64,000 bases of DNA from Pseudomonadota bacterium. Its GTDB lineage: Bacteria > Pseudomonadota > Gammaproteobacteria > Tethybacterales > Persebacteraceae. Position 1 is the stretch's first letter. Each line of letters opens with the position of its first letter. Shown in pieces: positions 1 to 31,223 of the stretch. The stretch covers positions 10,649 to 74,648 of the forward strand of contig JAHZKE010000042.1 in NCBI GenBank assembly GCA_022600535.1, in the 5' to 3' direction. Position numbers and translations under genes: made by a program. Under the pieces are notes generated by a model. The model did not search any database and was not told where the DNA came from. It saw only the letters and a list, made by a program, of their open reading frames with translations.

Positions 1-1065
1 TTTTTGGCACAAGGGATTATTCTCAGTAGTATTATTTGCCTCCTGATTTGGCTATTTTTGCTCCCCGCAACAAGCAGTATCGTTACTGCCTTAGGCGGCA
101 GCGGCGACGCCGCCGCTTGGGCAACCGAATATAGCCGCATTATCTACCTCGGTTCACCGTTATTTCTTTATGCCTTTATGTTTAATAGCGCCTTGCAAGC
201 TACCGGCAACGCCACCGCTTTTAAAAACAGCGTTATCGCTTCGGTATTACTCAACATCATATTAGACCCAATTTTAATGTTTGGGTGGTTGGGCTTACCT
301 GCCATGGGGGTCGCCGGTGTTGCACTGGCAACCCTCTTATCGCAGTTCGTCGGTGGCGTTTATCTATTTACGGTGCTCAACAAAACGATTGTTATGCACC
401 GCTGGCGTTGGCTATTTTTACGCCCGCGGGTGGAAATCTTGCTTAAACTCATCAAACAAGCCACCGCTCCTACCGGACGCATGATTGGCATTGGTTTATT
501 TTTCTTTTTAGTTACCGCCTTTTTAGGTAGATTAGATAATGACGCCGTTGCCGCCTACGGCATTGCCATACGGATAGAACAACTATTTTTATTACCCACC
601 ATTGGTTTAGAAGTTGCCCTCCTCTCCTACGCTGGGCAAAACTTAGCCGCCGGTAAACCGCAACAAACCCGCACTGCCTATCTCCTATGCCTGCGTTACG
701 GTATTATCTGCATGATTATCGGTGCAATTTTTTTAGTGGGAGTTGGCAAATATTTCATCCAATTCTTCAATGACGAGGAAGCCGTTGTGGAATATGGCTA
801 TAATTATTTATTAGTCGCTGCTTGTGTTGGCAACCTTTATCTATTTATTAACTTAGGGGGAGCAGTACTAATGGGCGCATTAAAAACCTTTGATATCTTC
901 ATTACCAGTTTATTACGGTTACTGATACTCCCCATCATCTTTTTTTGGATATTAGCCATACAATTAGAACTTGGCGTTATCGGAATATGGATTGGTATTT
1001 TACTCGCCAACATCCCCGCTGCCCTGTGGATGCATTATCGCTGTATAGCAGTGCTAGCAAAATAA
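1..1065 (+). CDS. MATE family multidrug efflux transporter (5'-partial; N-terminus lies upstream of window)
   Basis: 353-aa ORF made entirely of hydrophobic helices in the MATE/NorM style. The track's start is a TTG at 4 and MATE proteins are ~450 aa, so the gene is most likely truncated by the window edge. Confidence 0.7.
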   Translation, partial: FLAQGIILSSIICLLIWLFLLPATSSIVTALGGSGDAAAWATEYSRIIYLGSPLFLYAFMFNSALQATGNATAFKNSVIASVLLNIILDPILMFGWLGLPAMGVAGVALATLLSQFVGGVYLFTVLNKTIVMHRWRWLFLRPRVEILLKLIKQATAPTGRMIGIGLFFFLVTAFLGRLDNDAVAAYGIAIRIEQLFLLPTIGLEVALLSYAGQNLAAGKPQQTRTAYLLCLRYGIICMIIGAIFLVGVGKYFIQFFNDEEAVVEYGYNYLLVAACVGNLYLFINLGGAVLMGALKTFDIFITSLLRLLILPIIFFWILAIQLELGVIGIWIGILLANIPAALWMHYRCIAVLAK

Positions 1066-1090: not shown

Positions 1091-1268
1091 TACGCATTGG
1101 AAAATGTAGCGAAATCGGCGCAATAAAACTGTCCCGAAAATAACCCCCTAACCCTTACCCGTAGCAGTGCCTGCTACGGGTATTGTTGTTCGTTGCGTTT
1201 TTATAAAGTGAACAAGGATGTGATAGTATAGCCGTTTTATATTTACTGATCATTAAGGGAATTAATAA

Positions 1269-2633
1269 ATGTTACGTAGCCCGCAAGAGATAATAAACGA
1301 GATAATAGAGATAACCAAAGGAAAAAAATATATTTTTCGTGGTGAAAGTAGAGATTATTCTAAATCGGGAGGCAGGCATCTCACCTCTAATTTATATCGG
1401 CAGTTTTATTTATCCAGTAAAAATGAACCACCAATAAAAAATGAATATTTTTCTATCCTAAAGATAGAAAAAAATATTATAAGTAAAGCCAAAAAACACT
1501 TGCCTTATGGTGCAAGTAATATAGATATATTGACACAGTTACAACATTATGGTGGTAAAACAGCATTAATTGACTTTACCTATAATTTACATATTGCTTT
1601 ATTTTTTGCTTGTGAAAAAAATCTCAGTGAAGATGGGAAATTATTTATGTTTCCAAGTGAAAAATTTCCTGAGAAAAATGATATAGAAGTCAAAAAAAAT
1701 AATGAACTTATACCAATAGAACTTATTGAACAAGATATTTTAATGATGCCTACAGGAAAAGACCCGCGAATTATATTCCAAAGTAGTGTATTTGTACATG
1801 CACACAAAGGATACATAGAAGAAACGGCAAAATTGGAAATTATCTCTTCTAAAGAAAAAGACGACATACTAACTTATTTACGAAAAAATTTTAATATCCA
1901 TGCAGACACTATTTATAATGATATGTATGGTTTTATAAAAAATTTAGAGAACCATTCAACTGCAGAAATAGAATTTTATAGAGGGATAGCTTGGAATGAT
2001 CAAAAAAATTATGTGAACGCAATAAAATCTTATGATGAAGCCATTAAAATAAATCCGCAATTTACAGAAGCATACAATAACCGGGGCAATGCTAAATTTT
2101 CTTTAGGCGATACAACAGGAGCTTTATTAGATTATGATAAAGCCATTGAAATAAATCCGCAACTTGCAAAACCATACAATAACCGAGGCAATGCTAAAAT
2201 AAATTCGGGCGATACAACAGCAGCTTTATTAGATTATGATAAAGCCATTAGAATAAATCCGCAAAATGCAGAAGCATACAATAACCGGGGCATTGCTAAA
2301 ATAAATTCGGGCGATACAACAGGAGCTTTATTAGATTATGATAAAGCCATTGAAATAAATCCGCAATATGCAGACGCATACTATAACCGGGGCAATGCTA
2401 AAATAAATTCGGGCGATACAACAGCAACTTTATTAGATTATGATAAAGCCATTGAAATAAATCCGCAATTTGCAGAAGCATACTACAACAGAGGCATTGC
2501 TAAAATAAAATCGGGCGATACAAAGAGTGCAGAACAAGATTGGCTGCAAGCAAAAAAATTAGCCAAAGAGCAAAATCTTAACGATGACATTGAGAAGATT
2601 AATGAAGCATTACAACAACTTGAAAATAAATAG
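1269..2633 (+). CDS. FRG-domain protein with C-terminal tetratricopeptide (TPR) repeat array
   Basis: The N-terminal ~240 aa carry FRG-domain motifs: 'YIFRGESRDY...LTSNLYR', 'LQHYGGKTALIDFTYNLHIALFFA' and 'RIIFQSSVFV'. The C-terminal ~210 aa are six 34-aa TPR units (AYNNRGNAK...DYDKAIEINPQ). The gene is strongly AT-rich compared with its neighbours. Confidence 0.8.
   Translation: MLRSPQEIINEIIEITKGKKYIFRGESRDYSKSGGRHLTSNLYRQFYLSSKNEPPIKNEYFSILKIEKNIISKAKKHLPYGASNIDILTQLQHYGGKTALIDFTYNLHIALFFACEKNLSEDGKLFMFPSEKFPEKNDIEVKKNNELIPIELIEQDILMMPTGKDPRIIFQSSVFVHAHKGYIEETAKLEIISSKEKDDILTYLRKNFNIHADTIYNDMYGFIKNLENHSTAEIEFYRGIAWNDQKNYVNAIKSYDEAIKINPQFTEAYNNRGNAKFSLGDTTGALLDYDKAIEINPQLAKPYNNRGNAKINSGDTTAALLDYDKAIRINPQNAEAYNNRGIAKINSGDTTGALLDYDKAIEINPQYADAYYNRGNAKINSGDTTATLLDYDKAIEINPQFAEAYYNRGIAKIKSGDTKSAEQDWLQAKKLAKEQNLNDDIEKINEALQQLENK
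2041..2550 (+). repeat. Tandem 102-bp near-identical repeats (about 5 copies) encoding the TPR units
   Basis: A unit '...aaataaatccgcaa-[t/c/a]ttgcagaagcatacaataaccggggcaatgctaaaataaattcgggcgatacaacaggagctttattagattatgataaagccattgaaat' recurs with a 102-nt period at about 2050/2152/2254/2356/2458, with only a few substitutions. Confidence 0.8.
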
Positions 2634-2996
2634 TGCTGTAATGTTTGAGGGCTTGCTAATGCTCCCGCCCCTGCCCTGCTCAAACGGCGTATGCAAACGC
2701 TCGGCAAGTATTTTGGCGCTGGTGGTTGCAGGGAGTGCTAAATCGTGGATGAAAATATCTTCTTCGTCTTTATGTCCGACATAAGTATCGCAACAAACAA
2801 GAAAATTACGTAACGGAATACTGCATTCTGCCGACCATTCGTGTAACGTTTGCGATAATAGAGATAAATTGCCCTCATTTCACCCTACTCTAAACGCAGG
2901 GCTTTAAATTCTCCTCCCTCGGAGGCGCCCGCAGCTAATACAAAGTAATAAAGGTTTGTTATTTATGCTTGTGATTAACGCTATAATTATGCAACT

Positions 2997-4094
2997 ATGC
3001 AAGTTGCTCCTGTTAATTTTTCGCAGTTTGCCTCACTGCCGGATGACGATTGTCAAACGCGTATCAAAGAAGCTCGCGCCCGTCTTGGTGAGCGTGTTGT
3101 GCTACTCGCACACCACTATCAACGCGCCGATGTTTATTGTCATGCCGATTTAACGGGCGATTCGCTCAAGTTGTCGCGCTTGGCTTCGCAAACGCGTGCC
3201 GATTTTATTGTTTTTTGTGGTGTGCACTTTATGGCAGAGGTTGCCGATGTATTGAGTGCGCCCGAACAAAAGGTGATTTTGCCTGATTTATCTGCCGGCT
3301 GTTCTATGGCAGATATGGCTTCGCTGGCAAAGGTAGAGCGGGCGTGGCGCGAGCTGGCAACGGTGTTAGACCCCGACGAAACTATAACTCCCGTAACTTA
3401 TATTAACTCGGCTGCCGATTTGAAATCGTTTTGCGCCCGTCATGGCGGTATTGTTTGCACTTCCAGTAATGCCGAGGCGATTTTAAAATGGTCGTATGCA
3501 CAGCGCGAAAAGGTGTTGTTTTTTCCTGATCAACATTTGGGCAGATGGACGGCACGGCAAATGGGCATGCCGCCCGAAGATATGGCGGTGTGGGATTTTG
3601 ATTTACCGCAGGGCGGGCTAACTGCCGAACAAATTCATCGCGCTAAAATTATTTTGTGGAAAGGGTTTTGCTCGGTACATCAAATGTTTCGCCCGCAGCA
3701 TGTGCTTGATTTCCGCGAAAAACACCCCGAAGGGTTGGTTATTTCTCATCCCGAATGTTGCGAAGATGTCTGCGCATTGTCCGATTATGTCGGTTCTACC
3801 GAAATGATTATTAAAACGATTGCCGCCGCTCCCGAAAACACGCGCTGGCTGGTGGGCACCGAGCTCAATTTAGTGCAACGCATTGCCAAAGAGTTTGCCC
3901 CGCAAGGTAAGGTGATTCGCTTTATGTCGCCGATGGTATGTATGTGTTCTACCATGGCGCGGATTGACCCACCACATTTGGCGTGGGCGTTAGAGTCGCT
4001 TGCCGATGGCGAGGTGGTGAATCAAATTTCCGTCGCCGCTGAGGATGCCGAAATGTCGCGCTTGGCGTTGGAACGGATGCTTTCTTGCTCGTAA
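2997..4094 (+). CDS. nadA: Quinolinate synthase A
   Basis: 365-aa ORF with conserved NadA blocks (VHFMAE, ...CSMADM..., ...HPECC...) and a length that fits the family. Confidence 0.85.
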
Positions 4095-4125
4095 AAATAT
4101 GAATCACACACACTCTCATGCCACG

Positions 4126-4674
4126 ATGCAGGCAACTACTATTTTATGCGTGCGGCGTAATGGCACGGTCGCTTTAGGCGGCGATGGGCAAGTCACCTTA
4201 GGCGATACGGTGGTCAAAGCAACGGCGCAGAAAATTCGCCGTCTTGCTGGCGGCACGGTGTTGGCGGGTTTTGCCGGCGCAACTGCCGATGCTTTTACTT
4301 TGTTAGAACGTTTTGAACGGCGCTTAGAGGCGTGTAACCGTCAGCTTTCACGGGCGGCAGATGAACTCGCACGCGATTGGCGCACCGACCGCGTCTTGCG
4401 CCGCTTAGAAGCGATGTTAATTATTGCCGATGCAAATGAGTCGTTAGTGCTGTCGGGCTTGGGTGATGTATTGGTGCCGGAAAACGATGTTGCCGCGATT
4501 GGTAGCGGTGCCACTTATGCGCAATCGGCAGCGTTGGCGCTGATGCGTCATGCCCCTGATTTATCGGCAGAAGAAATTGTGCGCGAGTCGCTAACGATTG
4601 CCGCTGACATTTGTATTTATACAAACCACCAAATTATGGTGGAACAACTTGAACAAACTGTAAAGAAAAAGTAA
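4126..4674 (+). CDS. hslV: ATP-dependent protease subunit HslV
   Basis: '[23 protein letters not shown]' is the canonical HslV N-terminus (Thr right after Met). The internal ATG at 4126 gives 182 aa. The track's upstream start at 4045 would overlap nadA. The gene sits immediately 5' of hslU. Confidence 0.9.
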
Positions 4675-7544: not shown

Positions 7545-9614
7545 CTACTGTCCTTGCTGTCGCATTCCCTCTTTTAGAATTTCGCGGGCGCTGGCGGGGT
7601 CTTGTGCCTGTAATACACGGCGGGTAATGGTGTGCATGGTTTGGCAATTTGTTTGTTTGATTTGCCCGCGCACTTGTTCTATTGCCACGGGGTGCATGGA
7701 TAACTGCCGCAATCCTAAACCTAACATTAACGGAGTGAGTTCTACATCGCTGGCAAGTTCGCCGCATAGATTCACCGGCAGGTTGGTACGTTTTGCGTTT
7801 TCTACAATCAGTGCCAACATTTGTAATACGGCGGGGTGCATCGGATCGCACAAGGAGGTTAAGGTTTCATCGTTTCTATCGGCTGCCATAATGTATTGAA
7901 TTAAATCATTGGTACCGATAGAGAAAAAATTTAATTGCTTGGCTAATGCGCGCATAATAAACACTGCTGCCGGCACTTCTATCATCGCGCCAACTGGCGG
8001 CATGGCAACGTCTATTTCTTGAGTCACGCGCAGTTGTTCTTTGGCAACTTCTAATAAAGCAATGCTGCGTTGTAATTCTTGCGGGTGTGCCAACATCGGC
8101 AACAAAATACGCAAATTATCGTGTATTGCCGCTGCCCGCAAGAGTGCACGTAATTGGGTCATAAATAAATCGGGCATTGCCAAACAGTAGCGTATCGCCC
8201 GCACGCCTAAGGCGGGGTTGGCACCGATGGGGATTGCATCGGCGTGCTCGGGCATTTTGTCGCCGCCAATGTCTAAGGTGCGTATCACCACGGGCAGCGG
8301 GTGCATGGCAGATAAAACCGTGCGGTAAATTTCAAATTGTTCGTCTTCGCTGGGGAGGTCGCAACGGTGCATAAATAAAAATTCGCTGCGAAATAAACCA
8401 ATGCCATCGGCACCGCTATTAATGGCCGCGGTGGTTTCGTCCGGTAATTCTATGTTGGTGGTGAGGGTAATTTGTTGTTTGTCTTTTGTCAACACTCCTT
8501 TACCACTGCTTTTGTGCCGCCGTTTAACGCTGTCTTTTTTATGGGCTTGTTTGTGTTTTTTAATGTTGGCGCTGTCGGGGTTGATAATGGCGATTTGCCG
8601 TTGCGTATCTAACAACACGGTGGAATTGTGTTGCAAGCAGGCGAGCACTCCACGCGCGCCAATCAGAGCGGGGATATTCATACTACGCGCTAAAATCGCG
8701 GTGTGCGAATTGCCGCCGCCTGATTCGGTAATAAACCCTTTATACCCCAAGCGGTTAATTTGAATCACATCGGCAGGGTCTAAATCGGCGGCAATCAATA
8801 TTGCTTTTTCTCCCGTGGTGATGGGGGTTCGGCTGTGGTTGGTGTTGATTGCCATCGCTGCAATTAAGCGATTCATCACTTGTTCTATATCGCGTTGACG
8901 CTCGCGCAGGTAGGCATCTTTTAAGCGGCGAAAGTTATCGCTGATAATTTCTACCCGCTCTTTAAGTGCCCATTCGGCATTGATTGAACGGCTGCGGATT
9001 AACGATTGCGGTTTGCTGGAAAATTCCGCATCCGCCAACAGCATTAAATGTAAATCAATAAAGGGTTTGATTTCGGCGGCCCCGGGCATTTCGGTAATTT
9101 GCTGTAACAATAATTCAAAGTCACTACGCACTAGTGCCAGTGCGGTTTCGTAGCGTTTTATTTCGGCAGCTTGCTGTTGTTTTTCAATGCGATAACGCGC
9201 GACTTCCGTTGCCCCTAAACTGTGGATGTGCGCACGTCCATTAACGACGGCATTGCCAATACCAATGCCCGATACTTTGTGCATTTGCAGTTTATCGCTG
9301 TTGCTGTTTTCTGTAATGGCTTCGGGTTGTTGCGGGTTGTTCGGTACGGCATCATCGCTAAATCCGCTGGCAATGAGTTCTAATACCGCGGTGGCAGCTT
9401 CTTTTTCGTCTGCTCCTTCTATTATTATTTTTAAGTTAGTGCCTTCCGATGCCGCCAACATTAACAACGCGGCGACACTTTTGGCATCTGCTTTGCGTTT
9501 GCCTTTATAAAGGGTTGTGCTACTGTTATAACGCGCGGCTAATTTGGCTAATTTGGCTGCCGGACGGGCATGCAAGCCACGGGAATTAACAATAGTGGCT
9601 TGTACGCTAATCAT
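7545..9614 (-). CDS. ptsI: Fused HPr-Enzyme I phosphotransferase (PTS phosphocarrier HPr domain plus PEP-protein phosphotransferase)
   Basis: The N-terminal ~90 aa are HPr-like ('NSRGLHARPAAKLAKLA'). The remainder is the EI PEP-utilising domain ('GGxxSHxAIxAR' shape around 'GGNSHTAILARS' and the C-terminal TIM-barrel motifs). Confidence 0.8.
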   Translation of the reverse strand: MISVQATIVNSRGLHARPAAKLAKLAARYNSSTTLYKGKRKADAKSVAALLMLAASEGTNLKIIIEGADEKEAATAVLELIASGFSDDAVPNNPQQPEAITENSNSDKLQMHKVSGIGIGNAVVNGRAHIHSLGATEVARYRIEKQQQAAEIKRYETALALVRSDFELLLQQITEMPGAAEIKPFIDLHLMLLADAEFSSKPQSLIRSRSINAEWALKERVEIISDNFRRLKDAYLRERQRDIEQVMNRLIAAMAINTNHSRTPITTGEKAILIAADLDPADVIQINRLGYKGFITESGGGNSHTAILARSMNIPALIGARGVLACLQHNSTVLLDTQRQIAIINPDSANIKKHKQAHKKDSVKRRHKSSGKGVLTKDKQQITLTTNIELPDETTAAINSGADGIGLFRSEFLFMHRCDLPSEDEQFEIYRTVLSAMHPLPVVIRTLDIGGDKMPEHADAIPIGANPALGVRAIRYCLAMPDLFMTQLRALLRAAAIHDNLRILLPMLAHPQELQRSIALLEVAKEQLRVTQEIDVAMPPVGAMIEVPAAVFIMRALAKQLNFFSIGTNDLIQYIMAADRNDETLTSLCDPMHPAVLQMLALIVENAKRTNLPVNLCGELASDVELTPLMLGLGLRQLSMHPVAIEQVRGQIKQTNCQTMHTITRRVLQAQDPASAREILKEGMRQQGQ

Positions 9615-10027
9615 GGGGTTTTATCGCTGCTACTGATAATCGCGCGTTTGCCGGCGCCTGCCGCACAGCGTTTTAATTCCATTAGCGGCAACCCGCGCAT
9701 AGAAATTGCTTCTAATAACATTACTAAATTAACACCGTGCAAGCACGCGATTTGGCGATCGGCGGCAGCTAATTTTTCGGCAATATTGGCTTGCGTAGAA
9801 CCAAATAAATCGGTTAATATTAACACGCTACCGCAGTTGTTATGCAGTCGGCTCACGGCATCTTGCCCGTGTTTTTCCATTTCGCTACGGCGCTCGGTGC
9901 CGACAAAGGCAACGGCGATGACGTTTTGCGGTGTTTCACCCAACAAGTGCGATACCGATTCAAACAAAGATTCGCCCTGTCGCCCGTGGGTCATCAAGAC
10001 AATGCCGCAATCGTTTGTTGTGTTCAT
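9611..10027 (-). CDS. PTS EIIA component, mannose/fructose (EIIA-Man) family
   Basis: 'GIVLMTHGRQGESLFESVSHLLGE' is the EIIA-Man phospho-His context. ATGA overlap with the HPr-EI gene. Start taken at 'MNTTND'; the track's start is 10042. Confidence 0.7.
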   Translation of the reverse strand: MNTTNDCGIVLMTHGRQGESLFESVSHLLGETPQNVIAVAFVGTERRSEMEKHGQDAVSRLHNNCGSVLILTDLFGSTQANIAEKLAAADRQIACLHGVNLVMLLEAISMRGLPLMELKRCAAGAGKRAIISSSDKTP

Positions 10028-10245
10028 GTGAAGTTCAACCAAATGACTAATAAAACAATACTAACCGCTAATGCAATCATGGTGTTGAGTGCCATCTGCC
10101 CCGCCCCCATACCAGAAATAAACGACAACCCGTCGCGCGCCCCCCAATTTGCCCCCCAAACCATGGCTAACAGGTTAGCGGGTCCTGGCGTTCCTACCAT
10201 TAATGCTACAAATAAAATTAGCGCAATGAATGTATCTACTGGCAT
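10024..10245 (-). pseudogene. N-terminal 73-aa remnant of a LysE/RhtB-type amino-acid exporter
   Basis: 'FVALMVGTPGPANLLAMVWGANWGARDGLSFISGMGAGQ' matches the first two helices and the PGP motif of the LysE/RhtB family. It stops after 73 aa, against ~200 aa for the family. It abuts the EIIA gene, leaving no room for the remainder. Confidence 0.4.
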
Positions 10246-10274
10246 AATATCTACATTCTAACAAATTTTTATCC

Positions 10275-11312
10275 ATGCCTTTATTTGCAACTGCTGTTGT
10301 CCGCTGGCAAAAAAAGTACGGCAGGCACAATCTTCCTTGGCAACAAGACAACGATGCTTACAAAGTATGGCTATCGGAAATCATGTTGCAACAAACGCAG
10401 GTTACGGCGGTCATTCCTTATTATCTTAATTTTCTCCGCCGTTTCCCCACGCTTGCGGTATTGGCGCGGGCGCACGAGAGCAGTGTATTGGCGGCGTGGA
10501 GCGGGCTTGGCTATTATGCTCGCGCCCGTAATTTACATGCGGCAGCAAAGCAGATGTTGCGTGACGGAATCCCGCAGGATGCGGCGGGTTGGCAAGCGTT
10601 GCCCGGGGTAGGAAAAAGCACCGCGGCGGCAGTGGCGGTATTTGTTAATAATGAGCGTTGCGCTATTTTAGATGGCAATGTTAAGCGGGTGTTAGCACGC
10701 ACGCATTTGTGTGATGAATTAATTAACACTGCCGCCGGTGAAGAAGCGTTATGGCAAATTGCCAACGCGCAACTGCCCGCCAAACGCGCCAAACAAGACA
10801 TCCGCGCCTATACACAGGGGCTAATGGATTTAGGCGCAAATTGTTGCCGCCCGAAACAACCCTTGTGCGCGCAATGTCCGTTAACGGCACATTGCTTGGC
10901 ATATCAAAGCGATGTTGTCGCGGATTATCCGAAACGGCGACAAGCGGCGGCAAAAAAAGAAAAAACAGCACATTTTGTATTAATCCGCGCACAGAGCAAC
11001 GATAACAAAGAAACTCTGCTATTGCAAAAGCAAGCAAGTAAAGGGATTTGGGGCGGCTTGTGGTCGTTACCGTTGTATGCAAATGGTAAAGACCACTGGC
11101 AACAGTTAGTCGGCGCGCCACTAACGGCAGAAGGGACAAGTTCTTTTACTCACACGTTCACCCATTTTCGTTTAACAGCAACGGTATCGCATTACCGCTG
11201 TACTGTGTCATCAGTGCCATTGGTAGCGCTTGCTCCGCCCCTACGCTGGTGCAACAAATCGCTATCGCTTGCCCTCCCTGCCCCCATTAAGACATTACTA
11301 CAACAATGTTAA
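10275..11312 (+). CDS. mutY: A/G-specific adenine DNA glycosylase
   Basis: HhH-GPD glycosylase N-terminus 'YKVWLSEIMLQQTQVTAVIPYY', the 4Fe-4S Cys cluster 'CCRPKQPLCAQCPLTAHC' and a NUDIX-like C-terminal domain. Length is 345 aa. Confidence 0.9.
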   Translation: MPLFATAVVRWQKKYGRHNLPWQQDNDAYKVWLSEIMLQQTQVTAVIPYYLNFLRRFPTLAVLARAHESSVLAAWSGLGYYARARNLHAAAKQMLRDGIPQDAAGWQALPGVGKSTAAAVAVFVNNERCAILDGNVKRVLARTHLCDELINTAAGEEALWQIANAQLPAKRAKQDIRAYTQGLMDLGANCCRPKQPLCAQCPLTAHCLAYQSDVVADYPKRRQAAAKKEKTAHFVLIRAQSNDNKETLLLQKQASKGIWGGLWSLPLYANGKDHWQQLVGAPLTAEGTSSFTHTFTHFRLTATVSHYRCTVSSVPLVALAPPLRWCNKSLSLALPAPIKTLLQQC

Positions 11313-11393
11313 GGAGAATAGGGGCAGAGCAGTTGCAAAACGGCGGTAAATAAAGGATAATAACGCTTTTCAATCTTATTTAAATTTTTACCG

Positions 11394-11702
11394 ATGGCAA
11401 ATTCTCCTCAATCTATCAAACGCGCTCGTCAAGCAGATGTTCGGCGCAAGCGCAATCAAGGTGTTAACACCAAGTTTCGTACTATGGTCAAACGCGCCCG
11501 TAGCGATGTTACCGATGCCGAAACCGGAAAAACAATGTTCTCCGACATGCAAGCTGCTGCTGATGTTGCCGCGCGTAAGGGGATTATCCACCCGCGTAAA
11601 GCATCGCGCTTAAAGCAACGCATCAACAAAAGTATTCGCCTGCAACTCGCCAACAAGGCAGACGCACCTGCCGCGGTAGAAAAAAAAGCCGAAAAGAAGT
11701 AA
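11394..11702 (+). CDS. rpsT: 30S ribosomal protein S20
   Basis: 'MANSPQSIKRARQADVRRKRNQ...' is the canonical S20. Length is 102 aa. Confidence 0.95.
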   Translation: MANSPQSIKRARQADVRRKRNQGVNTKFRTMVKRARSDVTDAETGKTMFSDMQAAADVAARKGIIHPRKASRLKQRINKSIRLQLANKADAPAAVEKKAEKK

Positions 11703-11714
11703 CTTCGCTTGCCT

Positions 11715-11933
11715 TCAACGCAGACGCGTTGATAAAATCGCAATCCGTTGCGATAATTCTCTTACCGCTTCTAACAAACCGACATCTTCCGCTTGCGGAT
11801 TGATAATTTTCAGGTCCCGCACTAACTGGTTGCTATCTTTCAGCGCTGCCGCTAAATTATTCATCGCCACTGCCAGCTGTAACATATCGCTTGCTTCTTT
11901 TGCTTGCGTTTCTTCTATAATTTTATCTGCCAT
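11715..11933 (-). CDS. Hypothetical small protein (72 aa), predicted alpha-helical
   Basis: ORF directly 3' of waaA on the same strand with an 11-nt overlap. No recognisable motif. Confidence 0.3.
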   Translation of the reverse strand: MADKIIEETQAKEASDMLQLAVAMNNLAAALKDSNQLVRDLKIINPQAEDVGLLEAVRELSQRIAILSTRLR

Positions 11934-13173
11934 CTGTTGCCTCTCTTACAGCTAATAAACGCTGTAATAATATTAAGTGTTGTTCCAATGCGCCGCCGCA
12001 TTTTTGATAAAACTGCTTTGCCGCCGCTTTCATATTGGCACACGCCGCTTGATCGCTCAATAATTGCCGCGCCTGCTGTAGGGCAGCGGTAGCATCGGCA
12101 ACTTGTACCAATGCCCCCGCCCGCACCGCTTGTTTGACCAAACGGGCGTAATTTTCCATATACGGGCCGACAATAATCGCTCCGTTTCCCTGCATGGCTT
12201 CTATCGGGTTTTGTCCACCGTAGGGTAAAAAACTGCCGCCAATAATAGCAATATCGCAGGCGGCATACCATTTGTGCATTTCCCCTAAGGTATCGGCAAG
12301 ATACAACTGACAATCGGCGTTAGGGGTCAGTTGTTCGCTACGCAGTTGGCATTGCAGTTGCTGTTGTTGGCACAATGCGACTAATTCATCGCGGCGATGC
12401 GGATGGCGCGGTGCCAAAATAAAAAACGCCTTGTCTTTATTTGGGTTGCCTTTGTTTGCCGTCAAGAATAGGCGTTCCTCTCCTTGACGCGTGGCGGCTA
12501 AGAGTATGGTTTCTTTCGCACACAAGCGCGGTTTTTCTACCACCGGAGCAGCGGGAAGGTCAAATTTTAAATTCCCCGTTGTTTGCACATGACGTGCACC
12601 ATAACAACGCAAGCGCCCGGCATCGCGCTCGGTTTGTGCGGCAATAATGTCAAAACAACTGACCATACGCCGCATTAGCAGAGCAATGTAACGATAGCGG
12701 CGAGCGTTTTTTGTTCCCAAACGCGCATTTGCCAACATCAGGCGTATGCCACTGGCTTTTGCTACCGATAACAAGTTATACCAGTATTCTGCTTCCATAA
12801 CAATCCCGGCAACGGGACGCGTGCGGCGAAAAAATAAACGTACGGCGGCAGGTAAATCTAAGGGAAGTGCCGTAATCAGCGCTTCGGGGTAATGTTGGCG
12901 TAACCAATCGCGCGCTGCTGGTGTGGTGTAGGTAAGTAACAGGCGGTAGCCGTCTGCTTGCATCTGTTTTGCTAATTCTGCGGCGGCAATGGCTTCGCCC
13001 AACGATACGCTGTGTATCCACAACAGTGGTTGTTTGCTGTTATTGGGCGGGCAAAAACCGAAATATTCGCGCCACGGCACTGCCCCCGAACCGCGATAAC
13101 GTTTGTAAAGCCGCCACAGTGCGTAAGGCGTGCTGAGTAAGATAAGTGTGTTATACAATAAGCGGTTGAGCAT
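11923..13173 (-). CDS. waaA: 3-deoxy-D-manno-octulosonic acid (Kdo) transferase
   Basis: 416 aa. 'LWIHSVSLGEAIAAAELAK' matches the WaaA/KdtA N-terminal signature, and the C-terminal GT-B fold has the shape 'E..LEA..LG.PV'. Confidence 0.9.
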   Translation of the reverse strand: MLNRLLYNTLILLSTPYALWRLYKRYRGSGAVPWREYFGFCPPNNSKQPLLWIHSVSLGEAIAAAELAKQMQADGYRLLLTYTTPAARDWLRQHYPEALITALPLDLPAAVRLFFRRTRPVAGIVMEAEYWYNLLSVAKASGIRLMLANARLGTKNARRYRYIALLMRRMVSCFDIIAAQTERDAGRLRCYGARHVQTTGNLKFDLPAAPVVEKPRLCAKETILLAATRQGEERLFLTANKGNPNKDKAFFILAPRHPHRRDELVALCQQQQLQCQLRSEQLTPNADCQLYLADTLGEMHKWYAACDIAIIGGSFLPYGGQNPIEAMQGNGAIIVGPYMENYARLVKQAVRAGALVQVADATAALQQARQLLSDQAACANMKAAAKQFYQKCGGALEQHLILLQRLLAVREATDGR

Positions 13174-13181
13174 TGCACCGA

Positions 13182-14228
13182 TTATTTTTTTAATTTTAAA
13201 GTGGCTACTTGCGGCGGGGGGTCGTTGTCATCGCTTGTTCGCGGCGGTGCGCTGTCGGGGTTAATTTCCGCGTTTGTGGCAACATCGCTATTTTCTGCAT
13301 TATTTGTTGCCCCCTCATCTACTAACAGCGGCAAAGCATCTGCCAATGCCGACGGGGTAGTAATGCTGATTGCCCGTTGTGGTATGTCTTTCCCACTGCC
13401 GATAAATAAATTGGGAATGCCCACTGCCGCAGCAAGTGCTGAGACAACACCATTGCCAACGGCGATTTTCGCTGATTGTAATGCTCCGGTAATGTCTTCG
13501 GCGCGCATGGTGGGTTGCTCTTCTAACACCAACACCGATAAGTTGCTTTCTTTAACCAATGTCATAAACGGCGCCGGCACTCTACCACCAACGACAATAT
13601 AGGGTTGTTGTGGAATCATTTCGGGGGCGGGATACGTATTAAAACACCAATCTAACGGGATCCCATCAGTCGCGGGAGAATAAGAAAAATGGCGTGCCGC
13701 TAAGTGACGCATGCGACTACTATTGCTCATTTCGCCTTTGATGTGATAGGTTTCGTGTGCACTAAGATATGAAATTTTTGATGTTTTATCAATATTTTGC
13801 ACGTCAAAGCCAATAATCTGTTTAGTTTTTGCCACTTTACTAACGGCAATGCTAAAAGGGGAAAAATCAAAATCAAATACCGCATCGTATTCGGTAATGC
13901 GTAAATCTTTGCTCATGTTCCAATACGCTTGGACATTCCTACCGGTGAGGGCGGAGAGTTTTTTAGTTGCCGAAAATAAGGTGCTACCAATGCTTGCCTT
14001 TTTTGTTTTTTCTATGCCGTGTTCGGTGTCAATCGCAGGAACAGCAATCACACGCCGAACCACGCTGCTCATAAAAACATATTCGGCACAGCTTTCCGGC
14101 ACGGCAATATCGACTTGCGTGTCTGTTCCTAACGAAAGCACTAATTCTGCTGCCACTGCCAATGTATCTACCACCCGCTCGCAACCGCCGTCACGTATTA
14201 ATAGTATTTCATGCATGATGTAATCCAT
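13182..14228 (-). CDS. Glycosyltransferase family 9 (LPS heptosyltransferase-like) with a low-complexity acidic/Pro-rich C-terminal tail
   Basis: N-terminus 'ILLIRDGGCERVVDTLAV' and C-terminal 'IAVGNGVVSALAAAVGIPNLFIGSG' match the GT9 ('GNDSGPMHLAAALG.P.V.LFGP') motif pattern. It lies next to waaA, as in LPS core clusters. The tail '...NAENSDVATNAEINPDSAPPRTSDDNDPPPQ' is atypical. Confidence 0.55.
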   Translation of the reverse strand: MDYIMHEILLIRDGGCERVVDTLAVAAELVLSLGTDTQVDIAVPESCAEYVFMSSVVRRVIAVPAIDTEHGIEKTKKASIGSTLFSATKKLSALTGRNVQAYWNMSKDLRITEYDAVFDFDFSPFSIAVSKVAKTKQIIGFDVQNIDKTSKISYLSAHETYHIKGEMSNSSRMRHLAARHFSYSPATDGIPLDWCFNTYPAPEMIPQQPYIVVGGRVPAPFMTLVKESNLSVLVLEEQPTMRAEDITGALQSAKIAVGNGVVSALAAAVGIPNLFIGSGKDIPQRAISITTPSALADALPLLVDEGATNNAENSDVATNAEINPDSAPPRTSDDNDPPPQVATLKLKK

Positions 14229-14261
14229 TATACAGAGTAATTTATAGATACCGAGAGCTAT

Positions 14262-14492
14262 TTAAATTCCCCTCCGGCGGAAGATGGCAGCACAGCTGAC
14301 GGGGTGGGATAGACAGTTGTCAAGTTTTTAGGTTGTGGCGATGGCGCTGACTGCATCAACAATATTCTCGTCATTTGCCCGATTGTTGCGTTGGTGCACA
14401 CTCTCTAAGGAGTATTTTCTTATCTACCGATTTATTGGCTGTCAGCCCACCCCCTGCCATTCGGCGCTCCCCTCCTCTCAGTGTGGAATTTA
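14262..14492. repeat. MITE-like element: ~55-bp imperfect inverted repeats flanking a ~120-bp core
   Basis: The left arm 'tatttaaattcccctccggcggaagatggcag...ggggtggg' and the right arm 'cccaccccctgccattcggcgc...gtggaatttaaaag' share the reverse-complementary blocks tttaaattcc, (a/g)atggcag and ggggtggg. No ORF lies between the arms. Confidence 0.3.
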
Positions 14493-14560
14493 AAAGTTCA
14501 AACACACTGCGCTTTTTCATTTTATAAAATACGTTTATAAAGTGTAAAATAGCGAGTTAT

Positions 14561-15046
14561 ATGCGCTTGTTAGCCATTGCCATTTTTGCTTTCTTCTCTG
14601 TGCCCGTTGCGGGGGCACAACTCTATGCCTGTCCCAAAGCAGGCGGTGGGTCAACGCTCACCAGCACGCCGACTAGTGAAGATTGCCAGTTACAACAATC
14701 CATAAAGCGCGGTGCCGAACGTCTAAAAGCACAATCGGTGCAACCCAAACAAGCCCCGAAATTAGTGCCGACACAAACAAAGAAGAAACCAGCAGCAAAG
14801 AAGAGCAGCAAAAAATACCCTGTCGTCTCCACAGCAACGCAAAAGGTGCGCGATAAAAAGCGGATGGAAATTTTGCTCTACGAATTAGAAAAAGAAGAAC
14901 AGCAACAACAAGCAACGCGCGAACACATGGAAAGTATTAATATTGAAATTCCTAAGCAAGCAGAATTACTACCGCATTTTGAAGAGAAGTTAGCGATTCA
15001 CTCACAAAATATCATCGCTATTAAGCAAGAATTAGCGCGCTTATAA
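14561..15046 (+). CDS. Hypothetical secreted Lys-rich coiled-coil protein (DUF4124-like N-terminus)
   Basis: Signal peptide, then 'AQLYACPKAGGG...TSEDC' (a Y-x-C...C pattern), a K-rich linker and a Q-rich coiled coil. Its stop overlaps the hisA start (taATGg). Confidence 0.5.
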   Translation: MRLLAIAIFAFFSVPVAGAQLYACPKAGGGSTLTSTPTSEDCQLQQSIKRGAERLKAQSVQPKQAPKLVPTQTKKKPAAKKSSKKYPVVSTATQKVRDKKRMEILLYELEKEEQQQQATREHMESINIEIPKQAELLPHFEEKLAIHSQNIIAIKQELARL

Positions 15047-15771
15047 TGGATATTATCCCGGCGATTGATTTACTAAACGGTTGTTGTGTGCGCCTTCGTC
15101 AAGGCGATTACAATGCGGTGAGCTCTTACGATGACGACCCCGCTGCTGTTGCACGGCGCTTTTTTGTCGCCGGCACCCGCCGCTTGCATGTGGTGGATTT
15201 AGACGCCGCACGCTCGGGGCAACCCGTCAACCATGCCGCGATACGAGAAATTTTAGCGGTGGCAGACGAATATCAAGCCACCGTTGAAGTCGGCGGGGGG
15301 TTGCGCACGGCGCAAGCGGTAGCGGATATTCTTGCTGCCGGTGCCGCCTATGCCATTATAGGCACGGCAGCGGTTAAAGATGCCGCCCTACGCCGCACAT
15401 TGATTGCCGATTACCCTGGGCAAATTATTGTCGGCGTGGATGTTAAAGCGGGTTATGTTGCTGTGGCGGGGTGGTGTGAAGACGGGCGCATTGGCGAAGC
15501 CGATTTTCTTGCCGAATTACACGATACACCGCCGGCGGCGATTATTTATACCGATATTAGCCGCGATGGTATGCTCACGGGCAATAATGTTGCCGCCACC
15601 ACTGCCGCCGCCGCCGCCGCCCCCTGCCCGCTGATTGCCAGCGGTGGCATTGGCAAATTAGACGATGTCCGCGCTTTGATCACTGCCGGTAATATTGCCG
15701 GGGTGGTGATTGGACAAGCCATTTATACCGGCAATTTGGATTTATCTGAAGCACTACAATTACAACAATGA
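15046..15771 (+). CDS. hisA: Phosphoribosylformimino-5-aminoimidazole carboxamide ribotide isomerase
   Basis: 'MDIIPAIDLLNGCCVRLRQGDY' is the canonical HisA N-terminus. (beta/alpha)8 Gly-rich phosphate-binding motifs 'VGGGLR' and 'ASGGIG'. Length is 241 aa. Confidence 0.85.
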   Translation: MDIIPAIDLLNGCCVRLRQGDYNAVSSYDDDPAAVARRFFVAGTRRLHVVDLDAARSGQPVNHAAIREILAVADEYQATVEVGGGLRTAQAVADILAAGAAYAIIGTAAVKDAALRRTLIADYPGQIIVGVDVKAGYVAVAGWCEDGRIGEADFLAELHDTPPAAIIYTDISRDGMLTGNNVAATTAAAAAAPCPLIASGGIGKLDDVRALITAGNIAGVVIGQAIYTGNLDLSEALQLQQ

Positions 15772-19119: not shown

Positions 19120-21072
19120 TTATGCTGGTGCTTGCGCCTCGCCACTAAAAGCGCTGATTGCCTCTGCCAACGATAATAAACTGGTTTGCTTACTACCCAA
19201 ACGGCGCACCGATACAGTTTTCTGTTCGCTTTCGCGCTTACCGATTGCTAAAATAATCGGGATTTTTTCTTCCGAATGTTGCCTGACTTTGTAGTTAATT
19301 TTTTCGTTACGTAAATCGCTGACCACACGCAACCCTGCTTGCTGTAATTGGGCGACTACCTCCTCAGCATAGGCATTTGCTTCGTCCGTAATAGTGGCGA
19401 CAACAATTTGCGTCGGGGATAACCACAACGGCAAATGTCCGGCATAATGCTCAAGCAAAATACCAATAAAACGTTCAAAAGAACCAATAATAGCGCGATG
19501 ACACATTACCGGGCGCAAGCGCGAACCATCGGCGGCGGTATATTCGGCGTTTAAGCGCTCGGGCAGGACAAAATCCACTTGCCAGGTGCCGCATTGCCAT
19601 TCTCTATCAATCGCATCTTTCAAAATAAATTCTAATTTCGGACCATAAAAAGCGCCATCGCCCGGGTTGAGTGTCCACTCTACTCCCGCTTCGGTGCAGG
19701 CATCACGCAGGGCTTGTTCGGCGCGATCCCATGTTTCATCGCTACCGGCACGCAATGCCGGACGGTCGGAAAATTTAATAATAAATTCTTTAAACCCTAA
19801 ATCTTGATAAATGCTTTCTAACAACCGCACAAATTTAACGGTTTCGGGGGCAATTTGTTCTTCGCTACAAAATATATGCGCATCGTCTTGCACAAAGTTA
19901 CGCACGCGCATAATGCCGTGCAATGCGCCCGACGGCTCGCAACGGTGGCAAGAGCCAAATTCACTCATGCGTAACGGTAAATCGCGATAGCTTTTAATCC
20001 CTTGGTTGTAAATTTGCACATGACACGGGCAATTCATCGGCTTCAACGCAAAAACCGAAGTATCTTCGGGGGCGGCAATGTAGTCGCGCAAACCTGCTTC
20101 GCTTTCGGCAATATACATATTTTCGCGGAATTTATCCCAATGTCCGGAGATTTCCCACAATTTGCGATCGACTAATTGCGGTGTTTTAACTTCGCTATAC
20201 CCCGCCGCTTGCTGTCGCCGGCGCATGTATTCTTCTAACAGACGATATAACAACCAACCCTTGTCGTGCCAAAATATCATACCTGCGGCTTCGTCTTGCA
20301 AATGGAATAAGTGCATTGTCCGCCCTAAAAGGCGATGGTCGCGCTTTTTCGCTTCGGCTAAACGGTCTAAATGTTTGGTTAGGTCTGCCGGCGAATGCCA
20401 AGCGGTACCGTAGATACGCTGTAATTGTGGGCGAGTGGAATCCCCCCGCCAATAACTACCAGCAATATGCGTGAGTTTAAAAGCAGTGCCGACATCGCCG
20501 GTATGGCGCATGTGCGGACCGCGACATAAATCCATAAAATCGCCCTGACGGTAAAAAGAAACATTTTCATCCGCGGGAATCGCCTCTATCAATTCGCATT
20601 TAAATGCTTCCTTGCGTTCTTGATAGTAAGCCGTTGCCTCATCGCGCGACCACACTTCGCGTTCAAAGGGGATTTTTTGTTGCACCAAAGAGCGCATGTG
20701 GTGTTCAATTTTTTCTAAATCTTCCGGCGTAAAAGGTTGTTCGCGATAAAAATCGTAAAAGAAACCCTCTTTAATGACGGGACCAATCGTCGGTTGTGCA
20801 TCGGGATAAAGGTGTTGTACCGCTTGCGCCAATACATGAGCGCAATCATGGCGAATTAAGGTTAATGCTTCTTCGCTGTCGCGTTTGATAAAACACACAG
20901 CACTATCGTTTTCAAGCACGGTGCTTAAATCCGCTAATTGTTCATTAACCAAGCAAGCAACGGCTTGTTTCGCTAATGACGGCGCAATTTCGGCGGCAAG
21001 TTCGCGAGCGTTACTCCCTGCGGCAACGGTTTTCGTGCTTCCATCGGGTAAAGTAATCACTGCCATAGGCAT
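19120..21072 (-). CDS. thrS: Threonine--tRNA ligase
   Basis: 650 aa. N-terminal TGS domain ('MPMAVITLPDGSTKTV'), class-II aaRS motifs and the zinc site 'CRGPH'. Confidence 0.95.
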   Translation of the reverse strand: MPMAVITLPDGSTKTVAAGSNARELAAEIAPSLAKQAVACLVNEQLADLSTVLENDSAVCFIKRDSEEALTLIRHDCAHVLAQAVQHLYPDAQPTIGPVIKEGFFYDFYREQPFTPEDLEKIEHHMRSLVQQKIPFEREVWSRDEATAYYQERKEAFKCELIEAIPADENVSFYRQGDFMDLCRGPHMRHTGDVGTAFKLTHIAGSYWRGDSTRPQLQRIYGTAWHSPADLTKHLDRLAEAKKRDHRLLGRTMHLFHLQDEAAGMIFWHDKGWLLYRLLEEYMRRRQQAAGYSEVKTPQLVDRKLWEISGHWDKFRENMYIAESEAGLRDYIAAPEDTSVFALKPMNCPCHVQIYNQGIKSYRDLPLRMSEFGSCHRCEPSGALHGIMRVRNFVQDDAHIFCSEEQIAPETVKFVRLLESIYQDLGFKEFIIKFSDRPALRAGSDETWDRAEQALRDACTEAGVEWTLNPGDGAFYGPKLEFILKDAIDREWQCGTWQVDFVLPERLNAEYTAADGSRLRPVMCHRAIIGSFERFIGILLEHYAGHLPLWLSPTQIVVATITDEANAYAEEVVAQLQQAGLRVVSDLRNEKINYKVRQHSEEKIPIILAIGKRESEQKTVSVRRLGSKQTSLLSLAEAISAFSGEAQAPA

Positions 21073-21133
21073 TATTTTATCAGTTATCCCAACGCAACAG
21101 TTCGGACTCTATTAAATTCCACACCGACGGAGA

Positions 21134-21268
21134 GGAATTTAACATACGTTAATGAGGCGCTCACTGAGCTTGTCGAAGTGCCCTTAGGTGCAGCAGTACC
21201 GTCAATTAGTATGAGGGAAGTTTGGGAGCACGCTCTGGGGACACTTCGACAGGCTCAGTGAGCGACTG
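21134..21268 (+). repeat. Copy 1 of a ~135-bp extended-palindrome element (23-nt leader, 27-bp stem, 56-nt loop, 27-bp stem)
   Basis: 'ggaatttaacatacgttaatgag|gcgctcactgagcttgtcgaagtgccc|...loop...|ggggacacttcgacaggctcagtgagcgac|tg'. About 95% identical to copy 2. One extra 'a' and two substitutions weaken the second arm. Confidence 0.8.
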
Positions 21269-21547
21269 TCATTGCATAACACCCGCCAATCACTCAACAA
21301 ATAGAAATCATATAAACGGCAGGTCGTTTCTCGGCTGTTGAGTTTTTTTTGTGGTAAGATAAAACTATACTAACTCTATATTTAATTTTTCTTTTACTAT
21401 AAGGAGATATGAATGCCTACACCTAAACCGCCACTTAAAAATACTCCATCCAAAAAAACAGAATAAAGAATCTGGAAAGAGAAGAGACAATGCGCCGCAT
21501 CAATCTATTCCCCAACCAAAGCATCCTAGTAAAAAACAATAAAATAA

Positions 21548-21766
21548 TTGGATAAAATCAACATGACAGAAAAAGAAAAAGAAATATTAAAAATAGTATC
21601 GAAAAATCCTGGAATTCATACGACTGGTGTAGCCGAAAAATTTGATATAGATGATTGGAAAAAGGGGCAAAATAAAACACGTAAGATATTAATGTGCCTG
21701 CAAGAAAAAAAATTTCTTACTTCAGAAAAAATAGGAAAATATAGACGTTGGTGGTGTGTAAAATGA
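21548..21766 (+). CDS. Small winged-helix DNA-binding protein (AsnC/MarR-like HTH only), AT-rich cassette gene
   Basis: 72 aa. 'EKEILKIVSKNPGIHTTGVAEKFDI...KTRKILMCLQEKKFLTSEK' has the helix-turn-helix-wing pattern of AsnC-type N-terminal HTH domains. Very AT-rich with good codon periodicity. Confidence 0.45.
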   Translation: MDKINMTEKEKEILKIVSKNPGIHTTGVAEKFDIDDWKKGQNKTRKILMCLQEKKFLTSEKIGKYRRWWCVK

Positions 21767-21928
21767 TACTTTCTATGAAAGGATAAATATGAATATGCAA
21801 GAAACAAGGTTTATAATTTTAAAAGAAATATCCTACAATTTCCTAAAAATGCACAAAATATACAACATGATAACAAGAATTAATAAAAAAGTATCTTTAA
21901 TTAAATTTTTTATGGTGAGATAAGCAAA

Positions 21929-22564
21929 ATGAAGTTTTTTATACTATTTTGTGGCATTTTATTACTTTGTGGCGCTTCATATTTTTTTGAGATAATACAT
22001 TTTAATGAAAAAATTGAAGGGTTTCAAGATTTGAAATTTGGCATGACCGAAAAGCAAGTAAAATCTACTGAAATTTATAAAAATGGTGTTCTATTGTTTG
22101 GAGAAAAACGAAGAATTATCCCTGTCTATGATCTTGAGGGTCGTGTATTTCAATTTGAGATCATTATGGGAAAACATGATGATAAAATTCAAAATAAATT
22201 GATTAAATTGCTTGATGATAAATATAGATTATCAAAGCAACCATCATTTAGAAGTGTGGTTAATCAACAAATCGTAAAAAATGTGGAAATATTTAATTCT
22301 CACAGTGCTAAAATTAAATATGAGAATGAGAGAGCGCTATCTTGGGATGCTTTTGAAAAATATGAGAGCGAGCTATCTTGGGATTTTGCAGAAGGGCAGG
22401 TATCTTTTGTTAAAACTAAAGAAGCAGACAAAAATCATCTAATACGTTACACAAACGATAAAGAAGTGTACTTAGCTAAAACAACAATGCACTTAGTGTA
22501 TAGGGATAGGGATGTGGTTTATACAAAGGAAGATAGTACAGTGACAACTGAGGATGATTTATAA
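21929..22564 (+). CDS. Hypothetical membrane-anchored/secreted protein (211 aa), AT-rich cassette gene
   Basis: N-terminal hydrophobic helix 'MKFFILFCGILLLCGASYFF', then a hydrophilic domain with no recognisable motif. A plausible RBS-like 'ggtgagataagcaaaATG' precedes it. Confidence 0.5.
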   Translation: MKFFILFCGILLLCGASYFFEIIHFNEKIEGFQDLKFGMTEKQVKSTEIYKNGVLLFGEKRRIIPVYDLEGRVFQFEIIMGKHDDKIQNKLIKLLDDKYRLSKQPSFRSVVNQQIVKNVEIFNSHSAKIKYENERALSWDAFEKYESELSWDFAEGQVSFVKTKEADKNHLIRYTNDKEVYLAKTTMHLVYRDRDVVYTKEDSTVTTEDDL

Positions 22565-22715
22565 TAACCTGTAAAAAAATTACTTATAAATATTTATACG
22601 TTATTAGCTGTTTCGCTACCTCGTCATATTATTTGCTACTTTTCAATTTGCTCCTTATCAAAAAACCACCCCGTCATGTTTCGCTTCGCTACACATGCCA
22701 CCCCTCCGCCGAAGG

Positions 22716-31209: not shown

Positions 31210-31223
31210 CTCTCAAAAGGAGA

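Follow-up and report, generated by a model that had tools for sequence, protein, structure and literature searches.

The window analysed here, a 64 kb stretch (64,000 nt) of contig JAHZKE010000042.1, contains an intact open reading frame (ORF) of 454 amino acids at 1269–2633 on the plus strand, which starts with ATG and is located between matE and nadA. The encoded protein has an N-terminal FRG domain followed by an array of tetratricopeptide repeats (TPR), and the gene is referred to here as the FRG-TPR gene. It lies in an inserted islet for which the best-supported reading is the decayed remainder of a small foreign defence island. Both flanking genes had been named in an initial annotation made from the sequence alone, and both were identified by Pfam. 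Downstream of nadA are hslV and then hslU. The features of the locus are as follows.

1269–2633, plus strand: intact FRG-TPR gene, 454 amino acids (Pfam, PADLOC profiles and relatives)
1269–1964, plus strand: FRG domain, amino acids 1–232, with a predicted ADP-ribosyltransferase-like fold and a small C-terminal helical subdomain carrying the invariant YND..GF
1965–2633, plus strand: TPR array, six units and a C-terminal capping helix
1066–2971, no strand: inserted islet of approximately 1.9 kb, from the MatE stop codon to the nadA promoter region (empty site in the relative L083; insert also in the sister strain, L082)
2697–2870, minus strand: relic of a type ISP restriction-modification enzyme, helicase motif Ia/Ib region (tblastn; ~58 of ~1600 amino acids)
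1255–1260, plus strand: AAGGGA, a Shine-Dalgarno-like ribosome-binding-site motif read from the sequence, 8 nt before the ATG
1071–1091, no strand: short hairpin just after the MatE stop codon, 9 bp stem, terminator-like only on the minus strand
1156–1182, plus strand: hairpin with a perfect 12 bp GC-rich stem and a T-rich tail, stronger than that at 1071–1091
4–1065, plus strand: MatE transporter, left flank, host gene (Pfam; 98.3% identical to L082, omega 0.12)
2997–4094, plus strand: quinolinate synthase NadA, right flank, host gene (Pfam)

Insertion and composition of the islet

In a syntenic relative (locus L083), the NadA of which is 85% identical, the gene order is PriA-MatE-(25 bp)-NadA-HslV-HslU-DegP and the FRG-TPR gene is absent. 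Past the end of matE, homology between this locus and the window is lost, and it picks up again at 2972, close ahead of a conserved TATAAT that precedes nadA. The DNA from approximately 1066 to 2971 (1.9 kb) is therefore an insertion. A sister strain (GCA_022599495.1, locus L082) has the same insert in the same layout, with the DNA about 94% identical overall, and an identical protein in the same MatE-FRG-NadA layout is encoded on a short contig of GCA_022599435.1. The islet does not have the features of a mobile element, there being no integrase or transposase gene within it and only short chance-type matches, such as a 14 nt repeat at 1301 and 2854, in place of target-site duplications or terminal repeats at its flanks. 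No tRNA adjoins it, since Rfam found just four distant tRNAs in the window, nor did Rfam find a riboswitch upstream of nadA. In other relatives, L084 and L085/L086 (NadA 86% and 80% identical), nadA is preceded by a gene other than matE, and the matE-nadA junction is therefore prone to rearrangement in this lineage. A D12-class DNA methyltransferase comes after nadA in L085/L086.

The GC content of the ORF is 31.4%, compared to 47.4% for the window (z = -4.1), close to the approximately 30% and 50% that had been estimated by eye for the ORF and its neighbours. Equal-sized windows with a GC content this low make up 0.56% of the total, and each of these falls either on this islet or on another near 21.3 kb. 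At third codon positions the GC content (GC3) is 0.22 in the FRG-TPR ORF, against 0.46–0.51 in MatE, NadA, HslV, HslU, and the other neighbours tested. Synonymous codon choice is thus what deviates, beyond any effect of a Lys/Asn/Ile-rich protein. An explanation of the low GC as a by-product of amino acid composition was rejected on the same figures (0.22 versus ~0.48). Horizontal acquisition, previously argued from AT-richness, is thus upheld by the empty site in L083 and by an atypical composition, the deviation being strong and including the third codon positions.

The best named relatives of the window NadA are those of Ca. Persebacteraceae bacterium Df01 and the Gammaproteobacteria metagenome-assembled genome (MAG) WSBS_2016, at about 80% identity. 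The Ca. Tethybacterales, the order to which the Persebacteraceae belong, are sponge symbionts of broad host range (PMC8546597). Judged from this one gene, the host is probably a Tethybacterales-like sponge symbiont.

The start-less gene remnant suspected at 2650–2880 is real, and is a fragment of a type ISP restriction-modification (R-M) enzyme on the minus strand. The frame is 89 codons long (2879–2613) and contains no start codon. Annotated, full-length type ISP enzymes encoded on Arthrobacter and Bartonella plasmids match 2870–2697 with 50% and 47% identity over 58–64 residues (tblastn, E = 3e-14 and 5e-11), corresponding to residues ~224–298 of about 1600. The relic was identified via a metagenomic intermediate, protein P0372, and then the annotated plasmid genes; P0372 matches the relic with E = 1.2e-8 and the type ISP enzymes LlaGI/LlaBIII with E = 1.3e-8. 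Compared directly to LlaGI/LlaBIII, the relic aligns to the helicase motif Ia/Ib region with E = 0.016–0.02. The relic peptide has no Pfam match, and no tblastn match in the relatives' loci that were retrieved first. No other piece of a type ISP enzyme is present in the window, leaving ~4% of the protein. Type ISP enzymes are single polypeptides with nuclease, helicase, methylase, and target-recognition domains, and the relic, unlike LlaGI/LlaBIII, retains just this helicase fragment, with neither a start codon nor a sign of constraint. In the comparison with L082, 9 of the 89 codons have amino acid changes and the frame is therefore not constrained. On these alignments it is to be seen as the fossil of a convergent R-M gene, rather than as a gene. 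It is located 64 nt downstream of the FRG-TPR gene. The same geometry is found at L069, where an intact ISP-like methylase/target-recognition gene is convergent to the FRG-TPR gene and about 110 bp past its stop codon.

At the other end of the islet, the hairpin previously noted at 1071–1090 is present, at 1071–1091. The stronger hairpin at 1156–1182 is plausibly a terminator that insulates the islet from matE. It occurs once in the window and was therefore rejected as a repeated extragenic element.

The FRG domain and the TPR array

Amino acids 19–122 match the Pfam FRG model (PF08867) with a score of 53.8 bits (gathering cutoff 25) and an E-value of 3.8e-14. The domain assignment of the initial annotation, for which a hidden Markov model search had been proposed as a check, is therefore correct, and the same model is matched by 18 out of 18 aligned relatives. 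NCBIfam has no model for the FRG protein. Residues invariant across 35 relatives are R24/G25, H93/G96/D102/F103, and R167/Q171/S173/F175, and the three sequence blocks by which the domain had been recognised contain them. A further invariant block, K197 and Y216-N217-D218..G221-F222, is outside the Pfam FRG model. All of these residues are kept in the window protein.

The N-terminal 230 amino acids are also matched, nearly end to end, by 14 PADLOC profiles of PDC-S15, a candidate defence system consisting of a single gene. The best of these is PDLC04938 (E = 1.4e-20), in which amino acids 7–230 align to profile positions 50–270 of 276. Most PDC-S15 profiles have about 250–420 positions, whereas in the window protein the FRG domain is extended by the six-unit TPR array. 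FRG-TPR relatives also differ in that they are often encoded as one cistron within an R-M operon of type I or Eco57I type. PDC-S15 is a candidate system; the papers naming it are genome surveys, and experimental validation of it was not found in the literature searched.

Iyer, Burroughs, Anantharaman, and Aravind (PMC9503650) place FRG in the ADP-ribosyltransferase (ART) superfamily and predict it to be an NADase effector of prokaryotic immunity. Searching all PDB chains by sequence with the FRG profile gave nothing meaningful, and 18 FRG domains scanned leniently against Pfam gave no ART, PARP, RES, or DarT match. The members of the superfamily, including cholera/pertussis-type R-S-E toxins, Rhs ART toxins, KptA/Tpt1, DarT, and the RES/ParT NADases, have no detectable sequence similarity to FRG. 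The primary source of the Frg-ART assignment is said to be work of Burroughs and Aravind from 2020. Foldseek with the FRG domain found no match at E ≤ 0.001, yet the first 28 matches are all ARTs, mainly pertussis and cholera toxin. The closest structural neighbours of the FRG model are host-targeting toxins, with DarT and RES/ParT also among the neighbours at weak scores. These structural scores, weak but unanimous, agree with PMC9503650 in pointing to an ART-type fold, which is here the predicted fold of the domain.

ARTs have a split beta-sheet and a catalytic triad, H-Y-E or R-S-E, on strands 1, 2, and 5. In the predicted secondary structure of FRG, R24 is on strand 1, like the Arg of R-S-E-type enzymes, and T98, D102, and T104 are around strand 2. 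The invariant Q171 and S173 are positioned just before and at the start of a predicted strand (173–177), where the ART Glu would be expected. On the basis of predicted secondary structure rather than residue-level superposition, the position of the catalytic Glu of ARTs seems to carry Gln171-x-Ser173 in FRG. Some ART-fold NAD+ glycohydrolases use Gln at the position of the catalytic Glu. A second difference from the ART superfamily is the addition of the helical subdomain with YND..GF. In several FRG domains weak winged-helix-like Pfam hits (PqqD, HTH_11, and WH_KIN17) are found at amino acids 195–228 (nt ~1851–1952), and these cover the helical subdomain with K197 and YND..GF.

The C-terminal six-unit TPR array was confirmed by Pfam, with TPR_1 matching six stretches (E = 8e-46), and the array has the tandem 34-residue helix-turn-helix units of TPR proteins. 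Units 2–6 are 102 nt tandem DNA repeats (2030–2539) that are 84–90% identical to each other, which explains changes in copy number. Between the window and L082 there are two indels, one of 15 nt in frame and one of exactly 204 nt, equivalent to two TPR units, and a third relative (P0001) differs by one TPR unit. Identity to L082 is 96–98% in matE and the intergenic DNA, 94% in the FRG domain, and 89% in the TPR part, so that the gene has evolved more rapidly than the DNA on either side. The ratio of nonsynonymous to synonymous substitution rates (omega, Nei-Gojobori, window versus L082) is 0.12 in matE and rises to 0.56 in the FRG domain and 2.0 in the TPR part, although the last value is from one sequence pair and may be inflated by misalignment of non-orthologous, near-identical repeats. 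TPR substitutions are found in helix A and the turn, with helix B (GALLDYDKAIEINPQ) being invariant. The TPR value suggests, but does not prove, diversifying selection on a binding surface.

Relatives of the FRG-TPR gene and their neighbourhoods

When 1.84 billion cluster representatives were searched with the profile, 12,286 FRG proteins were found at E ≤ 0.001, 627 of them at E ≤ 1e-30. TPRs are also present in most of the 120 closest relatives, among the matches listed. A species-level genome scan found 364 relatives, and neighbourhood counts are from the best 80 loci of these 364. The window protein is 34–46% identical to the proteins of any of these 80 loci. By name, 38 of the 80 loci are from Poribacteria, Poriferihabitaceae, Spongiihabitans, Porifericomitaceae, or Entotheonellaceae. 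The others are from MAGs of Dadabacteria, Binatia, Nitrospinales, Nitrospirales, Caldilineaceae, Dehalococcoidia, Latescibacterota, Spirochaetia, Thermodesulfobacteriota, Limisphaerales, and Alpha- and Gammaproteobacteria, for a total of about a dozen phyla. The hosts of the clade are almost exclusively sponge-symbiont lineages. The FRG gene could be delimited in 77 loci, and in about 70 of these its AT content exceeds that of the flanking DNA.

There are 97 FRG genes in the related loci, 80 of which are fused to 1–18 TPR units. Nearly all of the remaining 17, which are FRG-only, have a separate TPR-only gene directly behind them in the same orientation. The occurrence of the same two modules both fused and split is strong evidence that FRG and TPR work together. 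Split versions of this kind are found in Poribacteria and Binatia (L042, L049, L055, L062, L066, and L080; about 9950–11500 in each), where an FRG-only gene of ~225–245 amino acids is followed after 3–40 bp by a TPR-only gene of ~264 amino acids with 5–6 units. Tandem FRG-TPR paralogues are common (L012, L057, L072, L077, and L053). In L012, hsdS and hsdR are separated by a row of four FRG-TPR genes together with TPR-only fragments (8541–15089). The initial annotation regarded the standalone FRG-TPR fusion as functionally undescribed. The fusion is not a rarity, being the dominant form of a large clade.

Neighbour clustering and Pfam identified R-M genes within ~6 kb in 33 of the 80 loci, with nearly all of these genes sharing the strand of the FRG gene. 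One recurrent order is hsdM, a small HEPN-type NTase_sub_bind gene, hsdS, FRG/TPR, sometimes AAA_14-DUF4143 or Fic, and hsdR. The other is an SNF2/PLD helicase, an Eco57I-type methylase, and FRG/TPR. Where hsdS is upstream, its stop codon and the FRG start codon overlap by 4–7 bp in 8 out of 11 cases, and the same overlap with FRG is found for 3 out of 7 Eco57I-type methylases. NTase_sub_bind (PF08780) is positioned between hsdM and hsdS, is sometimes duplicated, and may have hsdS split around it (L002, L004, L006, L009, L012, L019, L034, L060, and L063, upstream of 10000). About 47 of the 80 loci have no R-M gene within 6 kb, and stand-alone copies are therefore common. Relatives are thus located in R-M operons and variable regions, not in housekeeping operons, and the conflict or defence architecture previously proposed is in keeping with the R-M context at 33 of the 80 loci.

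Integrases are close to some of the relatives. More distant FRG genes are found on plasmids, in the lactococcal phage TP901-1, and at the right end of a P2-like phage genome. In the latter (L087, Peduovirus P2_2H1, 30979–32343) the gene is downstream of the replication gene and encodes a 454 amino acid hypothetical protein with a distant N-terminal FRG domain (28% identity over 130 amino acids). This region of P2 is a known hotspot for anti-phage genes. In a Halioglobus MAG (L010, OZ253570.1, 'plasmid: 2') an FRG relative adjoins hsdM-hsdS. The contig bears a plasmid label, suggesting a means by which the FRG gene could be transferred.

A proposed defence role and its alternatives

We lean towards the islet gene encoding a sensor-effector defence protein, left behind from a decayed, horizontally acquired defence island. 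The FRG-TPR gene would have been acquired together with, or next to, an R-M gene that has since decayed. Its product would be a cytoplasmic protein with an N-terminal ART-type FRG domain and a C-terminal TPR array, the latter either binding a trigger, such as a phage protein, or holding the enzyme inactive. Triggering would cause the FRG domain either to use up NAD+, as an NADase, or to ADP-ribosylate a target, and this may stop the infected cell or the invader, whether phage or mobile element. In favour of this reading are the PDC-S15 match, the foreign composition and the empty site, the R-M context together with the type ISP relic, the location of distant FRG genes in phages and on plasmids, the pairing of FRG with TPR, and a conflict-like mode of evolution relative to L082. 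The analysis establishes the domains, the insertion, the R-M linkage of relatives, and the FRG-TPR coupling, whereas NAD+ as the substrate, the trigger, and the protective phenotype are inferred.

Known systems share parts of this arrangement. The closest functional analogue found is BcTpr of the Bacillus cereus BcTir/BcTpr pair. The preprint on it (bioRxiv 10.1101/2023.05.26.542521) reports BcTpr to be anti-phage and describes a single polypeptide with an N-terminal NAD+-cleaving domain and C-terminal TPR that tune its activity. The layout of FRG-TPR is alike, although its function is predicted. The N-terminus of BcTpr is described there as a glycosidase/NADase only, and the likeness drawn to FRG is one of layout. 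BcTpr also works with a TIR partner gene, whereas no TIR gene was seen beside the FRG-TPR genes here. Type I R-M operons can contain abortive-infection and other accessory genes, and FRG-TPR relatives likewise lie between hsdS and hsdR, on the same strand and with overlapping codons. They differ in having an FRG effector and a TPR sensor, and in the window the partner was of type ISP and is now decayed.

Several points weigh against a defence role. The canonical catalytic Glu of ARTs is, from predicted secondary structure, apparently replaced by the invariant Gln171/Ser173. The full-length model has a predicted template modelling score (pTM) of 0.54, too low for any reading of autoinhibitory packing. 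The raised omega, with the reservation given above for the TPR value, could reflect relaxed constraint. The window gene stands alone, its partner having decayed and no other R-M gene being present in the 64 kb. No experiment on any FRG protein was found in the literature searched. To this extent the earlier description of FRG as a domain without an assigned function stands; it does not stand in respect of prediction, as an ART/NADase role has been proposed (PMC9503650) and the domain is part of the PDC-S15 candidate.

The main rival is a secreted eukaryotic-like effector, a symbiosis factor that is delivered to sponge cells, where the TPR would bind a host protein for modification by the ART-fold domain. 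This would suit a clade found almost only in sponge-symbiont lineages of about a dozen phyla (38 of 80 loci by name) and a domain with host-targeting toxins as its closest structural neighbours, and TPR proteins are a recognised eukaryotic-like class that is enriched in sponge symbionts (PMC11706023, PMC6374434). However, the charged N-terminus (MLRSPQEIINEIIEITKGKK...) has by inspection no signal peptide or hydrophobic segment, and FRG starts from residue ~5. Clustering and inspection, with no dedicated predictor, found no secretion genes among the recurrent neighbours, which are instead same-strand R-M genes that are often translationally coupled. FRG relatives are also present in phages and non-symbiotic bacteria, and the restriction to sponges is equally explained by gene exchange in a dense, phage-rich community. 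A host-directed role is distinctly unlikely. It is also unlikely, if less markedly so, that the gene is an orphaned R-M accessory, either a back-up abortive module or a regulator, which became inert after loss of the type ISP enzyme and is drifting towards a pseudogene. Its partner is down to a 58 amino acid relic with no other R-M gene in the window, omega is raised in both parts (0.56 and 2.0), and relatives are tightly coupled to hsdS. Such drift is difficult to reconcile with an ORF that is intact in three strains (window/L001, L082, and P0001), in which none of the indels (15 nt, 204 nt, and one TPR unit) shifts the frame and every family-invariant residue is kept. An FRG omega of 0.56 is still purifying selection, and relatives persist without an R-M gene within 6 kb in about 47 of the 80 loci.

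An addiction toxin, in which the ART-fold would kill cells that lose the island, as DarT or RES toxins do, and the TPR would be the antitoxin in cis, is very unlikely. There is no separate labile antitoxin gene, either in the window or recurrent in relatives, and a fused antitoxin does not give post-segregational killing. Placement is inside R-M operons, not at island borders. The presence of DarT and RES/ParT among the structural neighbours, the persistence of the gene past the decay of the adjoining R-M gene, and the integrases near some relatives speak for it. Hardly to be credited is an ordinary TPR scaffold protein for housekeeping or regulation in which FRG is not an enzyme, its AT-richness coming from repeats and Lys/Asn/Ile composition. 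Pfam gives FRG no experimentally known function and the similarity to ARTs is weak, as this would have it, but the GC3 of 0.22 is foreign synonymous codon usage, the gene is absent from L083, and the relatives have an R-M context. The strictly conserved polar set of R24, H93, D102, R167, Q171, S173, K197, and Y216-N217-D218 is furthermore active-site-like.

Returning to a defence protein, a broader proposal is that FRG-TPR is an abortive-infection module found across the sponge microbiome, exchanged between phyla and wired to R-M systems, in which rapidly diversifying TPR of variable copy number sense phage proteins or restriction failure and free a non-canonical, Gln-based ART-fold NADase. 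This is tentative and rather doubtful. If true, a sizeable share of the eukaryotic-like TPR proteins of sponge symbionts, counted to date as host-interaction factors, would be phage sensors. Were NADase or ADP-ribosylation activity and phage protection to be true, FRG would be a new effector class in bacterial immunity, the way in which R-M operons recruit second-line modules would become apparent, and part of the TPR enrichment in sponge symbionts would represent defence rather than host manipulation. The large FRG family gains a concrete, testable architecture of ART-fold effector, TPR sensor, and R-M operon partner, for which the fused, split, and tandem variants are a natural series. If the role is not confirmed, the locus still serves as a well-recorded case of a small defence islet in decay.

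Earlier work has already recorded the FRG domain family, the superfamily predicted for it, and its standing as a defence candidate. In the literature searched, no description was found of the TPR-fused clade as the dominant form, the near-obligate pairing of FRG and TPR, the translational coupling of FRG-TPR to R-M operons, the spread over sponge-symbiont phyla, or this islet with its type ISP fossil.

Elsewhere in the window, a second AT-rich islet is located at 21100–22600, between thrS (19120–21072, minus strand) and the next host genes, with a GC minimum of 29% near 21300. It contains a 72 amino acid winged-helix ORF at 21548–21766 (HTH_24 and Penicillinase_R, E = 2e-4) and a 211 amino acid ORF at 21929–22564 with a hydrophobic N-terminus, a GC3 of 0.23, and no Pfam match. 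Downstream of the first islet, the longest ORF for hslV (4045–4674) shares its first 50 nt with the end of nadA. Its Proteasome-domain match begins only at amino acid 29, and the true start is therefore probably further downstream.

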